From: Pocillopora damicornis
Lineage: Eukaryota
Direction: 5' to 3'
Length of the DNA stretch: 64,000 bases
Assembly: GCF_003704095.1 (NCBI RefSeq)
Contig: NW_020845620.1
Span: forward strand, 1-64,000
The position numbers and the translations under genes are program-made. The notes beneath the pieces are model-generated. The model was not told the origin of the DNA and ran no database searches. It was given only the letters and a program-made list of their open reading frames with translations. Shown in pieces: positions 38,097-45,494 of this stretch (its first letter is position 1; each line of letters opens with the position of its first letter).

Positions 38097-38830
38097 ATGA
38101 GAAAACTCGTACTGACTTTGGTTTTCATTGCATGTATCGCCTATGGGTACTGTCGTTCTTTTTTGGCTGAAGACAACGCACGCTCAGCAGAGAGAGTGAG
38201 ACAGAAATTATTTGCAAGGTAAGTACTAATTTCGAAAGCATCACATTTGCTCTTTGGTTAACGTTTCTTTGTTAGACCTTGATTGAATTAATCCTAAAAC
38301 TCATTGTAGGACATTGTAAACCTGTTATTAAAACTGTTCGGTGTTCGCTTGGAGATTTAATCCGTTCGTCATCCTAGTGTATACGAACTCTCCACGTACG
38401 TTGCATTTTGACAAATCAAACTGCGTTAGGCGTTGGTAAACGGTAGTTATTCCCAACAAAAAGGTTAAAATGAACAAAAGTCCCCCTGGAAAGATCTCCG
38501 TTTACAAGTTCGTAAAAGCAGTGGTGGAGAGCTCCCACCAACAAGATTGCCTCGGAATGGAAATGTATCTCTTTAAGAAATATCATGGGAAATTAAATAA
38601 AATCACACTCAATACCAACTAATATATGTTTTCGCAAATTTAAGACAGCCCTGGTTATTAGTCATATCTCGCACGGCTTATATCCCATGCTGCGTGGTCA
38701 GCTAAAATCGCCTAAACATTTCTGGAGTGTTTTTTCCGATTTTTTTTTGGCTCGGTAAGCTCTTCGATAGAGAAAAATCTTCACATTCAGTTACAAGCTT
38801 TTAAACAAAACAAAATTTGAAAAGAATAAA

Positions 38831-38875
<45 letters not shown>

Positions 38876-41575
38876 TATAGCAGGTAAATTTAGTGTTAAC
38901 AACTGGGTTGAAAACGTAAATTAGCCACCGTAAAGGGTAAAAAAGCTGACGTTTCGAGCGTTAGCCCTTCGTCAGAGCGATTGAAGTGAACGAAGTTTTA
39001 AAAAATAAATTTTACCAGTTTAAAAAAAACTTATGGAGTCTTAGTAGTTAAATTTTTTTCACAGCTTATTCTCCCTCGATCATTGGATATCAATAATAAT
39101 GGTAATGGAAGTTGCTAGGTTTTGAAGTCTAGATCCATTTGGCACGATTTCATTCAAAGATGGGCTGTTGCCATGGTAACAGTGATTGATTAACGCATTC
39201 TGCATCATGACCGATCCTTTCTCTCTCAAGGAGTAAAACAAATAGCGTCTGGCTTTCAGGTGTCTCACCAGTCATTTGACACAATTTCGAGCGAATATTG
39301 TTCGGATGGTAGCCCCAATCTATTAGTTTAAGATTTGTGCTTCAAAAATTGCTTGATGTTTTCCATCAAGGAGAAAAATCTCACTCCACAAAATGCATTA
39401 TCAACAAAATCAACAGAGAAGACTGCCAAGCTCAACTACATTTAGAAGCTATCCAAACAGTCCACTTTTTAGGACTCAAATATGTTACTAATTCTATGGA
39501 TGACGGAGTTTCTAAATGAATAAATTATATTAGGGAAAAGATAAACTTTGGCCACCATTTTATAAAGTTGAGGTAAAAAGTCAAATATATGCAAAAGTAG
39601 CCTTTTTTCCTTCCAATTTTTTTCTCAGAGAAGGAGGAAAAATTAAACTTAATTACTAAGATACATTATCTGACATCGAGAGTGCTAGGCGAAATTCGTT
39701 GATAACATTTATGGTCAAAGGACTTATTAAATGGTATGAAATGAAACACAATTTCGCAGTATACCTTCGAATTATTTGGCAATTTTCATCCGATGCATGC
39801 TTGTGTCACTCACTTCTGTTGATATTCTGTTTCATTATCTTGATGTTACCAAGGTTAAGCAGGAAGCTTGGCTTGATATTTTCTGTAGGGACTTTAAGCC
39901 TTCAGCTTTGTAAATGATACCTTACGATGTAAAAATCGGCCAACGTTATTTGTGCGATTTCCGCCATGGAAGTACTGAAATTCATTCAGATCCAGCTCTA
40001 AGTCGAGAAATAAAAGATATGCCTCTTTACCATTTTCCTTACATGTGGAAAACGGTCGAACATATTGCATTGAAATACTGCACCACCAAAATTTGATTTG
40101 CATAGACTTCGTCTCAACCCCAAGTCATATGGCGTCCGTGGCAGTCAACGGCAACGTAGCAGTCAGATGTAGGGCAATACTGGCCGGCCACGCGCCAATT
40201 TCCCGCGCAAAATTTTAAAGGAAAAATAAGAAACTAGCGCTGTCTCGCAGAATAAGCAATGCAAATGGAAAAGTTCATTGCAATCTGTAAAAGGAAAAAA
40301 ATGTAAGGAAAAGCAAAGGTCGAGACTTTTCGAACTCAAAGCTTATTCAAATACAGGTATGCTGTTTATGTAATATTCTATTTTGAGCTTTACCAAAAAG
40401 GCTCCATCGCTTGTGAAACATCGTGACTTCCTGGCTTGTGTGGGTGTTTGTGACTTGTGTGAGACAACTTGGTTTGGACAGCCTGAAAGTACGCCATGTA
40501 ATCATTACAACGTTTTGCACGTGCTCAGACGTAGAAGCACAGACGTCCCATTTTCTTAACCAACCAAAAATTAAAAAGACGACTCAACAATCCTAGCTTA
40601 TTACGATACAATTCAAAACAAAGGTCACTAACAAGTTCACTTCTTTGCACGACTGTAGGATGAGTAAAATGGACGACACCGCTGACACTAAGCGAAGAGG
40701 GGAAAAAAGGAGTCAAAACTGTACACCACCTCACTGTCAGAGTCACGGTTACCATAGTGGCTGGCTTATGGAGTAAGTGTAGTTGACCAGATAGATATCA
40801 CACAACTGCTTTTCTAAGCAAAACGAGGCTTTATCCACAACTGATTACGTAACATCTTTGGCTTACAACCTACGAAGACGTTCCGAGGATTCCGAGGGCT
40901 GCTAACGTCTAAAATAATTTGAAGAATGTCAAAGATGGAGATTACTTAACAAAGAATGTTAAGACGCCCATGAACTTGCTAACACACCAGTAACCCAGAG
41001 TTGAGAGTTGACATGATAAATTGTCCTGTGAGATTGTTGTTCTTACTTTTCAGTGAAGCGAGATTCGAAGAAATAATGAGTGAGAGTAAGGAAGCAGGAG
41101 CTTAAACTTAACTAAGACAAAGCTATGCACCATGCAGAAACATCACTCCTTTTTGTGTCTATAGGAGACCAGTCAATGTTTATCTCCAGGGGGAGGGGAG
41201 CTAGTCAATATTTATCTTCAGGGGGAGGGAGTGTGAGGAGGATTTTGAGGGGATCACAGGGTTTTCAGGGAAAACGGAAGAGGGATTAATCGCCAACAGA
41301 GTAAACAGGGAGGACTATAGAGCGTTTATAGACCATAAATATTTCCAATTCACTTTTTCGAGTGGAAGGAAAGGAAGTTGAGGATTTCTAATGAGTCGTT
41401 CCCTTTCTGTGCTTTAGTGAATAAAAAGATTTCTCTTGTGCGAATTTTCGATCAAAATCGATGAAGAGTGGTCATTAATTTCTTCTTTTTCATACACGAT
41501 TGTAGCAAGGAAGACGTGATTGACGCAGCCAATGCGAAGCGAGGGGCGGACTATGGTCATCTTGGAAATCAGTAA
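38097..41575 (+). CDS. Small secreted prepropeptide-like protein, copy 1
   Basis: Exon 38097-38218 MRKLVLTLVFIACIAYGYC-RSFLAEDNARSAERVRQKLFA ends at a phase-2 GTAAGT donor. Candidate last coding exon 41506-41575 in matching phase reads KEDVIDAANAKR-GADYGHLGNQ*. TATAAA near 38014. Internal small exons are possible. Confidence 0.55.
38810..38982 (-). mobile_element. Penelope-like element terminal fragment carrying a minimal hammerhead motif
   Basis: Minus strand 38978-38944 reads GCT-CTGACGA-AGGGCTAACGCTC-GAAAC-GTC-AGC. Confidence 0.65.
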
Positions 41576-43120: not shown

Positions 43121-44048
43121 ATGAGAAAACTCATATTGACATTGGTTTTCAGTGCCTGTATTGTCTACGTATCTGCCCGATCTTATGTTAGTGAAACAAA
43201 AGCTCTCTTGGCAGAGAAGTGGGCTAGACGGAAATTGCCCCCACTGTAAGTGCCAGTTTAAAAATAAGCACAACACAAAAGAAAATAATCGTGTCCCTTC
43301 TCTGTTCGACTTCGACTAAATTGATGTGAAAATGGGAGTTTTTCGAGAAAGATGTTTTTCCTCTTGTCACGAGCTTGGGAAAAAGAAAATTTCTGAGTCC
43401 TCAAGAGGAAGCGAACTTCAGACCTTCGGATTCCGCGCTCCGATACTCTACCAATGAGCCAAAACGAATTCTACGGTTAGCGAAGTCTATCACAAAGTTC
43501 ATATGACACGCGTCCTGCATACTGCTAGGATTAGCAACGTCGATGGCGTCATGTTTGTTATTGAAATAAAAAATATGGTAAGCTTTGAGCTCGGTAAAGA
43601 AACAGAGAAAGATGTTTTTCTTCATGTCACGAGCGTCGGAAAAAGAAACACTTCTGAGTCCCCATGAGGAATCGAACCTCAGACCTTCGGATTCCACGCT
43701 CACCGTAGTCTGTGAGGCTCAGTGTTAGAGCATCCAAACGCAGATCTTTCTCTATTTCTTCACCGAACTCAAAACTTACAATCTCTCTAATTCTATGAGT
43801 TGTTCGTTCGCAAAATATGCTCAGTTTTAGCTTTGAAACTACGACATGTCAATAAAGAAGAAAAAATTGATATCCATAATCCCAGCTGGTTATGGTACTA
43901 ATAAACATGGAGGATTGTAACAAACGTTGTTTCTTTGCTTGATTGCAGTTTGGTGGAAAGGAGCGACTCCGTGAAACCAAGCGAGGAGAGGCGATTCAGC
44001 GCAAACATGGTTTATCATCACTTCTCATCGTCAGCCGGGTTTCGATAG
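43121..44048 (+). CDS. Small secreted prepropeptide-like protein, copy 2 (about 74 aa)
   Basis: Exon 43121-43245 MRKLILTLVFSACIVYVSA-RSYVSETKALLAEKWARRKLPP, donor GTAAGT. Exon 43949-44048 reads LVERSDSVKPSEERR-FSANMVYHHFSSSAGFR* if spliced directly. A further donor follows at 44056. Confidence 0.55.
43345..43796 (-). mobile_element. Composite tRNA-derived SINE-like insertion with 9-bp target-site duplication
   Basis: Two tandem tRNA-like heads on the minus strand (tggtagag...ggttcgattcc), flanked by gagtttttc / gagttgttc. Absent at the homologous site near 51815-51830. Confidence 0.75.
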
Positions 44049-45494
44049 CTGAGTAGTAAGTCTGGTTCATTTAGAGTCTTTCCTGAGTATAATTGCTTGA
44101 GTGAATTTTGGATTCACGTTGGCAGAGATCGTGACCGAACTCTAAGTAGTTAACTCTGTTAATCACATATAAGAAATTCACATACCTGAATCGACACTTT
44201 TTACCACAACTGTGTTTTGTGTATCTTTGTACGAAGATCTCTCTTTACTCATCTAATCATTTTATTTTTGCACTCAGTTGTTGCAGAGCGTCGAATGGAA
44301 GAGTAAGTCTGTGAACTGTACCATTGGTTCTTTCAGTGATATCATTTACGCAATTGTCTTAGTCGATATTTTCTCCCAAGTTTCGCTATCCTTCACTCCC
44401 CTAAGCGACACCATTTCCTTCCATTGTTCATTCAAGGCTATTGTAACCGAGGCTCTGCGGGTGGGGCCAGTTTTTTTTAGGCCAATTATAGAGCGTTGTA
44501 AAAAAAAACAATGTATTCTGGGATTACTTTCGTTCGACGCTCTTAAAAAATGGCTCCATTATTTTTCTCCCCTTCACTTTAGGTCCTAGTGAAATGAACG
44601 TCTGACGGCTGACACAGAAAGTTCAGATATATGCAAAGAAGCCATAACTGCTGCTGAAGTGAATTTAATCACTGAGGAGACCCGATATAAAAGCTTGACT
44701 TGAAGGCCGCAGTTAGCATTTAAATGTAATTATTGAGAATGATATTAAAATTACAATAATATTAATAACAACAACAATAAAAATAATGTCACCACAATTA
44801 ATGTAATAAGCCACAAGTAAAGTTCAGTAAAAATAATTACAAGGTTTTGCACGGTGGGTTAGCACAAGGTTTTGTTTCTGAGTTTTCTAAAGATGAAAGG
44901 TGGAGATGGAAAAAAGAAAGACGACTGGTTCGATCTCATTGCCAAAACAATGATTTCTAACTTTTACATACTGACATCGATCTGCCTCATATTTCGGCTA
45001 GCATTGTGGCCTATTTCTTTTATGATAAGTGAAGAAAGGTGAAGAAATTTTTGAGAGATATTTAAAACATCAATGTTAAGCTGGTCATAATTGCAATGAG
45101 GCACGGTTTAAATTGATTTATGCATCTCGTAGATAGTTTATAATCTCTTGCTATGAATCAGTTATGCCTAGTATTCGAAAGGCGGACCGAAAATTTATAA
45201 CTTAGTGTTGATAAGCGTTTCTTTGACGCAGTATTAAACCCCGCGCTCATTCATCAGTGACACTGTAGTCCTTCTCACAAGAATTTCAACGAGTGATTTA
45301 TCACAGTCTCCTATCAGCTAACTAATTTTTCTCGCAGTCATTTGGTAACGAGAGAGCATCAGAGCTTCTAAAGATTTCATTTCGAACGATCTGTAATGCC
45401 CAAACATCTCACCGACCAGAACGTTCGATTGTACCACTCTGCCCCAGTCTCCTTTGTAGCCCTCCTTAAAGGTCGTCACACCACGTGCTCTTCC

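Follow-up and report, generated by a model that had tools for sequence, protein, structure and literature searches.

A spliced gene of Pocillopora damicornis encoding a predicted small secreted prepropeptide, flanked by copies that are probably decaying

A 64-kb stretch of the genome of the coral Pocillopora damicornis (RefSeq assembly GCF_003704095.1, contig NW_020845620.1, positions 1 to 64,000; hereafter the window) carries a small four-exon gene, which we call gene A, together with further copies or fragments of its first exon, of which the three most complete are designated B0, B and C. Gene A is transcribed and spliced, and RNA fixes its reading frame. Our best reading of the encoded sequence is that gene A is a lineage-restricted, under-annotated prepropeptide. 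The full explanation that we favour, with a probability of about 0.45, is that its protein is secreted and cut at two Lys-Arg (KR) sites to give two non-amidated signalling peptides, and that the other copies are decaying. Secretion and processing, taken jointly, are likely, and signalling is somewhat more likely than defence as the role of the peptides.

Gene A is a transcribed four-exon gene

The region 37900-45000 is present in 24 sequencing runs, 13 of which are recorded as RNA. We analysed RNA contigs from four runs, one per study (X1, X5, X10 and X11). Statements on splicing rest on the contig joints listed, beyond which there are 80 further joints, and contigs drop rare forms. Gene A lies on the forward strand. 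Exon 1 (38034-38218, start codon at 38097), delimited by RNA, encodes a signal peptide predicted from hydropathy and the start of the pro-region. Exon 2 (40659-40772, 114 nt) contains the basic sites KRR (40690-40698) and KR (40705-40710) and two Cys codons (40720 and 40735). Exon 3 (41506-41605), supported by RNA and by the database protein P0001, encodes an acidic spacer, a second KR (41537-41542) and a ten-residue carboxy-terminal peptide (41543-41572) followed by the stop codon (41573-41575). Exon 4 (42277 to approximately 42490) is 3' untranslated region (UTR), with AATAAA at 42304 and 42371.

The joints 38218 to 40659 and 41605 to 42277 are present in X1, X5 and X11. The middle joint, 40772 to 41506, is present in X1 and X5, and in X11 a loose end after 40772 reads into the exon at 41506. 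All introns of the gene are GT-AG. In the same three runs the joint between exons 1 and 2 has a depth of 1426-1575, as against 0 in the intron bins at 39051-40084; these values hint at an abundant transcript, contig depth being a poor measure of expression.

A sequence-only reading of this DNA had proposed tiny secreted prepropeptide genes in which two copies of the signal exon splice to short exons with dibasic sites. That layout is borne out for gene A by its transcribed, RNA-spliced open reading frame (ORF) of 101 residues with KR sites, and one of the two predicted peptides, KR-GADYGHLGNQ-stop, lies in the frame of the spliced RNA. RNA splicing, the check suggested at the time, joins the four exons of gene A in three of the four runs; the proposed splice to a dibasic exon holds for gene A, although not directly, as the exon at 40659-40772 intervenes, and no corresponding joint is listed for copy B. 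The accompanying caveat about frame and intervening exons was well placed. The statement that the peptides lack a Cys framework was mistaken, because the exon that had been missed, exon 2, carries a Cys pair.

A core promoter is predicted at 38014-38048 (+), with TATAAA at 38014 and an initiator-like TCATTT at 38043, 29 bases apart. Only copy A has both elements at the usual spacing; the TATA box and initiator (Inr) are lost in B0, B and C. The 5' edges of gene A RNA contigs fall at 38033-38038, near the predicted initiator, which is not proof of a start, as RNA contigs cannot give the true transcript start. A 50-base rule is usually applied to nonsense-mediated decay. Because the stop at 41573 lies only 30 bases ahead of the last junction, the gene A transcript is expected to escape this pathway.

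P0001, an independent database protein, is identical to the gene A ORF at 100 of 101 residues. Two RNA variants, each an allele or a species difference, alter the protein: at 40742 Ser69 becomes Asn (X1, X5 and X11), and at 41543 Gly92 becomes Arg (X1), which turns KR-G into KRR and takes one residue off the last peptide. A possible further exon around 41054 was rejected, as the RNA joint 40772-41506 jumps it and it has no homology to the exons. An internal duplication as the source of exons 2 and 3 is unsupported at the DNA level (p=0.19).

The predicted precursor and its processing

The gene A protein has a basic n-region, hydrophobic residues at 4-15 and then a charged pro-region, and from this hydropathy profile a signal peptide is predicted over about residues 1-17/19. 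Basic sites are found at residues 52-54 (KRR), 57-58 (KR) and 90-91 (KR). After KR57-58 comes a segment of 20-31 residues in which Cys62 and Cys67 flank two prolines (C-x-PP-x-C), with a His-rich stretch adjoining the two Cys; past this segment lie the acidic spacer, KR90-91 and the final ten residues (92-101). The whole precursor has four Cys, two of them in the cargo. At pH 7 the computed charges of the predicted gene A peptides are neutral to acidic (-0.3 to -3.3), and those of the peptides of its most distant relative, P0022, are -3.2 and -4.3. The average masses computed for the reduced gene A peptides are about 1031 Da for residues 92-101, 2270 Da for residues 59-78 and 3441 Da for residues 59-89.

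The AlphaFold model (pLDDT 52.7, pTM 0.19) has helices at the signal and at residues 26-38 and is unstructured beyond residue 38, as would be expected of a precursor. Nine of the ten language-model neighbours among the matches listed are peptide-hormone or neuropeptide precursors (scores 0.86-0.90), which we treat as a lead on layout and not as homology. An atlas search with residues 50-102 of P0022 gave a best score of 0.83 to an unrelated entry and was rejected.

We propose that the signal peptide would be cleaved near residue 17-19 and that a convertase would cut after residues 58 and 91. This would release a C-x-PP-x-C peptide with a Cys62-Cys67 disulfide closing a six-residue ring, and an acidic carboxy-terminal peptide of ten residues; the acidic spacer may also be trimmed. 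The released peptides could then act on a receptor as non-amidated signals. Two articles offer precedents, in that KR cleavage has been shown by mass spectrometry in Nematostella (PMC11087051) and a taxon-restricted, non-amidated bioactive peptide is reported from Hydra (PMC12440616).

Gene A relatives are restricted and under-annotated

The relatives of gene A are Pocillopora proteins and P0022 (63% identity), which we infer to come from a related coral. A word-indexed search with P0001 placed all six scored candidates in the gene A family, and a five-sequence profile compared with 1.84 billion representatives returned three proteins at E<=0.001, all already found. The cluster of P0001 includes P. 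damicornis pdam_00021526 (RMX44301.1), and an adjoining cluster includes P. meandrina CAH3032917.1. Both are annotated as hypothetical proteins, and they represent the same gene as gene A or its orthologue. RMX44301.1 corresponds to residues 1-78 of the gene A ORF; the pdam_00021526 and CAH3032917.1 models, of 79 amino acids, terminate where exon 2 ends and include neither the spacer nor the second KR nor the last peptide. Both public models are cut short: RNA splices the missing part on.

P0022 retains KR57-58, KR90-91, both cargo Cys, the PP and eight of the ten residues of the last peptide, compared with 16 of 31 residues in the pro-region; it lacks the first R of the KRR. His66 and His73 vary among the relatives. 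In the Pocillopora proteins P0003 and P0009, the Cys peptide has substitutions at 4 of 20 residues each.

Pfam returned no family for P0001 (E up to 5) or for either copy B exon, and a sub-threshold NVEALA match on the P0003 signal (E 0.099) was rejected. A PDB sequence search with the gene A protein gave no credible match, the two hits to an oxysterol-binding-related protein (E=1) being chance. The single passing metagenome hit among 120 pattern matches (L001) consists of 15 residues between stop codons in DNA of 51% GC, and is also ascribed to chance. The 431-residue, bacterial-looking P0024 shares a 90% cluster with the 57-residue P0023, a clustering artefact; P0024 is presumably a bacterial glucose-1-phosphate adenylyltransferase. 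No literature on the gene A accessions or motifs was found in a search whose reach excluded subscription journals and bioRxiv supplements, and the topic literature, judged by titles and abstract starts, held nothing describing gene A.

Comparison with known cnidarian precursors

Gene A would work like a cnidarian prepropeptide, yet its sequence appears to lack the defining features of each family compared here. The scleractinian preprohormones (GPRGamide, Antho-RFamide, GLWamide, RPamide, pQSITRFamide, FHIRamide and Antho-RWamide; PMC7523074) resemble gene A in their basic sites and acidic spacer, and in the signal peptide and short peptides that are predicted for it. Unlike them, gene A has no Gly amidation donor and no repeated peptide copies, and it contains no RF-, GLW-, RP-, PRG-, HIR- or RW-amide motif of those family lists. 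Its motifs were not found in the supplements of that article (11 files, one an unreadable scan).

In the cubozoan cyclic FRamides (C-x-GQMC-WFRamide; PMC6402141), a likely Cys1-Cys6 ring occurs together with KR cleavage. Cys62 and Cys67 of gene A similarly occupy positions 1 and 6 of the predicted ring, but the ring sequence is unrelated, there is no FRamide, and the peptide is present as a single copy without GQMC-WFRamide repeats; going by the published description, the two are alike in the size of the ring and in nothing more. Hydra LW-peptide precursor A (PMC12440616) is a taxon-restricted cnidarian precursor of non-amidated peptides, as gene A is predicted to be. Its peptides are of the LW type, with activity and neuronal expression reported, and the comparison with gene A is by description only.

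The SCRiP toxins, damicornin, AmAMP1 and digitiferin derive from small coral precursors that are secreted and bear a signal peptide, as is predicted for gene A, and some SCRiPs carry a convertase site (PMC10892658). SCRiPs have an eight-Cys framework with a carboxy-terminal CCC, according to the same source, which gene A lacks: there are two Cys in its cargo, which is also not cationic. Damicornin, AmAMP1 and digitiferin contain a ShK domain (PMC12496222), whereas gene A matches no Pfam family. In coral larvae, neurosecretory cells have short secreted proteins of restricted taxonomic range as their markers, although by the published description these are more widely shared than the gene A family appears to be (PMC12225738). 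The gene A motifs had no match in the two supplements of PMC12745922 or in the supplement of PMC12225738 (about 4 million characters, possibly incomplete), where the gene may still be present under another identifier.

Probable decay of the other copies

The window contains six stretches of exon-1-like sequence and no others, in agreement with the earlier count of about six copies or fragments. This similarity is not chance, because blastn of A against the other copies gives best E-values of 3e-25 to 7e-15. A, B0, B and C also have about 150 bases of upstream sequence in common. The conserved upstream block described previously, a putative promoter element shared by A, B0, B and C, is indeed present at 37946 (37946-37967), 42694 and 42976 on the forward strand and at 52179 on the reverse strand, and AGGAAAATGA occurs four times in the window.

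Copy B0 (42683-42960, +) comprises the upstream block and a signal exon with a start codon at 42839 and a stop at codon 20 (42896). Copy B (42976-43245, +) has the block and an open signal exon, with a start codon at 43121 and a donor after 43245. Copy C (50720-52206, -) is an inverted duplicate of the B region, with a start codon at 52034 and again a stop at codon 20 (51977). The remaining two occurrences are fragments without a start codon, at 42627-42675 (+) and 52238-52330 (-), the latter with an internal stop. Downstream of the signal exon, copy B has an exon 2 (43949-44055, +), a putative 25-nt exon (44278-44302, +) for which donor use is suggested by a contig break in X11, and a last exon (44583-44854, +) that is a paralogue of gene A exon 4 (p=0.001). 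Judged against 1000 shuffles, copy B exon 2 is homologous to exon 2 of gene A (p=0.001) and not to exon 3 (p=0.14).

The B and C regions form an inverted duplication of about 90% identity over 1057 nt. Copy C has lost the exon-1 donor, and its exon 2 carries one base more than that of B. The motif AAGCGA begins at exon base 32 in A and at base 31 in B and C; being one base earlier, it shows that copy B leaves the frame of A ahead of the KR motif, which explains the earlier doubt about the exon-2 frame. No frame of copy B exon 2 contains a Cys. The second peptide that had been proposed, RR-FSANM and onwards, is an out-of-frame reading of this diverged paralogue, and its frame is not conserved, because C has the extra base and the X11 contig is missing five bases near the start of the exon.

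RNA skips or runs through the copy B signal exon. One X5 contig covers exons 3 and 4 of gene A, continues to 43096 and is spliced from there to 43949, bypassing the start codon of B. The exon-1 donor of B is crossed unspliced by contigs of X1 (42785-43444), X11 (42442-43444) and X5 (43216-43383), and no junction from 43245 to 43949 is present among the joints listed. The exons downstream are probably spliced, because contig breaks at 42814, 44057, 44304 and 44583 coincide with splice signals, and in RNA they would belong to transcripts that read through from gene A, as a long 3' UTR. No RNA cover is listed over copy C, which we do not count as evidence. Such read-through over the relic copies extends over 42277-45189, about 2.5 kb, at roughly 1-13% of the gene A contig depth in three runs.

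A donor-like GT(A/G)AG lies 21-29 bases 5' of the start codon in all four copies (38068-38073, 42815-42820 and 43097-43102 on the forward strand and about 52055 on the reverse strand). It is used in B by the X5 contig, after 43096, and a break in an X1 contig suggests its use in B0; the listed contigs of A run through it. If used in A, it would yield a form without the signal.

Over the 19 signal codons, a small sample, the proportion of non-synonymous differences (pN) is well below that of synonymous differences (pS) between A and B and between A and C (p=0.002 and 0.006), and close to it between B and C (p=0.68). This pattern would fit an old functional paralogue that is now decaying. The locus may have arisen by an old duplication giving A and B, followed by tandem copying of the promoter and exon 1 and then by the inverted segmental duplication that gave C. 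Copy B is likely silent, and the five other copies probably do not form a working gene family but are duplicates in decay. The earlier proposal of a family with a conserved signal and divergent cargo finds no support, given the stops, lost donor or frameshift that these copies show in this assembly.

Interspersed repeats at 38820-38985, 43330-43720 and 52880-52915 reach bin depths of hundreds to 28,000 in the RNA contigs, and the insert at 43330-43720 is missing from the intron of copy C. Rfam gave no match, and no tRNA was found, within 37000-53500.

Weighing the explanations

Several observations tell against the explanation that gene A encodes two non-amidated signalling peptides beside decaying copies. 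X10, one of the four RNA runs, has only unspliced cover of DNA-like appearance (depth 2-5). Neither P0001 nor P0022 carries an amidation signal, be it G-K/R-K/R or a terminal Gly, and the scleractinian neuropeptide families listed in PMC7523074 are all amidated. The Cys peptide is not better kept than the rest, being identical to P0022 at 11 of 20 residues and containing 6 of the 15 sites that vary among close relatives (residues 45-101, p=0.31). The extra conservation of the KR together with the last peptide falls short of significance (p=0.085; one distant homologue). Atlas recognition reached 2039 compared with a mark of 2300, with 129-140 of 256 features in common. As for the neighbouring copies, exon 1 of B is open, the RNA variants listed for B add no stop, and the X11 contig gaps its exon 2 differently, so that other lineages or life stages may have an intact copy B.

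With the same gene model and processing, the peptides could instead be defence or venom effectors made by gland cells or cnidocytes, from an effector cluster evolving by birth and death. We regard this as a serious possibility, if a tentative one. Local duplication with decayed copies, the substitutions in the Cys peptide of P0003 and P0009, the acidic spacer and the high contig depth, poor measure that it is, would all suit such effectors, and antimicrobial roles have been suggested for the short taxon-restricted proteins of larval neurosecretory cells (PMC12225738). However, the predicted peptides are neutral to acidic, unlike cationic membrane-active peptides, and two cargo Cys compare poorly with the eight-Cys SCRiP framework and the ShK domains of coral antimicrobials as described in the sources above. 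Pfam and PDB offer no match, and the excess of variable sites in the Cys peptide does not reach significance. The mostly disordered model, the acidic net charge and the His-rich stretch beside two Cys would also be consistent with a small disordered protein that is secreted uncut or partly cut and serves in mucus, in matrix or in metal binding through its Cys and His. We consider this unlikely, as P0022, at 63% identity, still has both KR pairs, and His66 and His73 differ among the relatives.

Least likely, in our view, is a multigene family that is active as such, copy B yielding a second precursor whose cargo is different and frame-shifted. The open exon 1 and intact donor of B, which when joined in silico give a 74-residue ORF with an RR site, speak for it, as do the downstream splice sites that appear to be used and the low pN relative to A, which suggests that the B lineage was once constrained. 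Against this stand the X5 splice from ahead of the B start codon, the contigs of three runs that cross the exon-1 donor unspliced, the loss of TATA and Inr, and a frame kept neither by copy C nor by the X11 contig; none of six candidate database proteins (at least 73 amino acids) matched B exon 1, which is weak evidence.

Surrounding genes

Elsewhere in the window, PAN, EGF and LamG (concanavalin-like) exons form a cluster (29658-34900, 45340-49970 and 56380-64000). Around copies B and C the LamG units recur in both direct and inverted orientation, and several of them appear to be broken. On the reverse strand, 54340-56550 contains a TPR-repeat gene spread over several frames and, after it, a presumed CHAT protease domain, for which Pfam gave no match. 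Exons of a peptidase M16-family gene lie at 1490-9550 (-), and one or more exons of a protein kinase, presumably NEK6/7-like, at 16224-16469 (-).

Implications

The general layout of gene A is ordinary. Its precursor fits neither the amidated neuropeptides nor the Cys-rich antimicrobials and toxins of corals described in the articles cited. Three independent studies of a major reef-building genus provide RNA in which the gene is spliced, and its two short predicted peptides are directly synthesizable. A bolder reading, which we think rather improbable, is that Pocillopora and its close kin own an abundant peptide hormone or neuropeptide that belongs to a new class. It would be a ring kinked by proline, closed by one disulfide and not amidated, co-released with an acidic decapeptide, and the locus would act as a cassette able to make new secreted peptides out of duplicated signal exons and of cargo exons shifted in frame. 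If this were true, the new class would escape amidation-based screens and be cut short in gene models. If the gene A peptides serve in defence, they would represent a new small scaffold. If they are signals, they would extend to corals a form of non-amidated peptide signalling for which, according to PMC12440616, bioactivity in cnidarians is so far reported from Hydra only.

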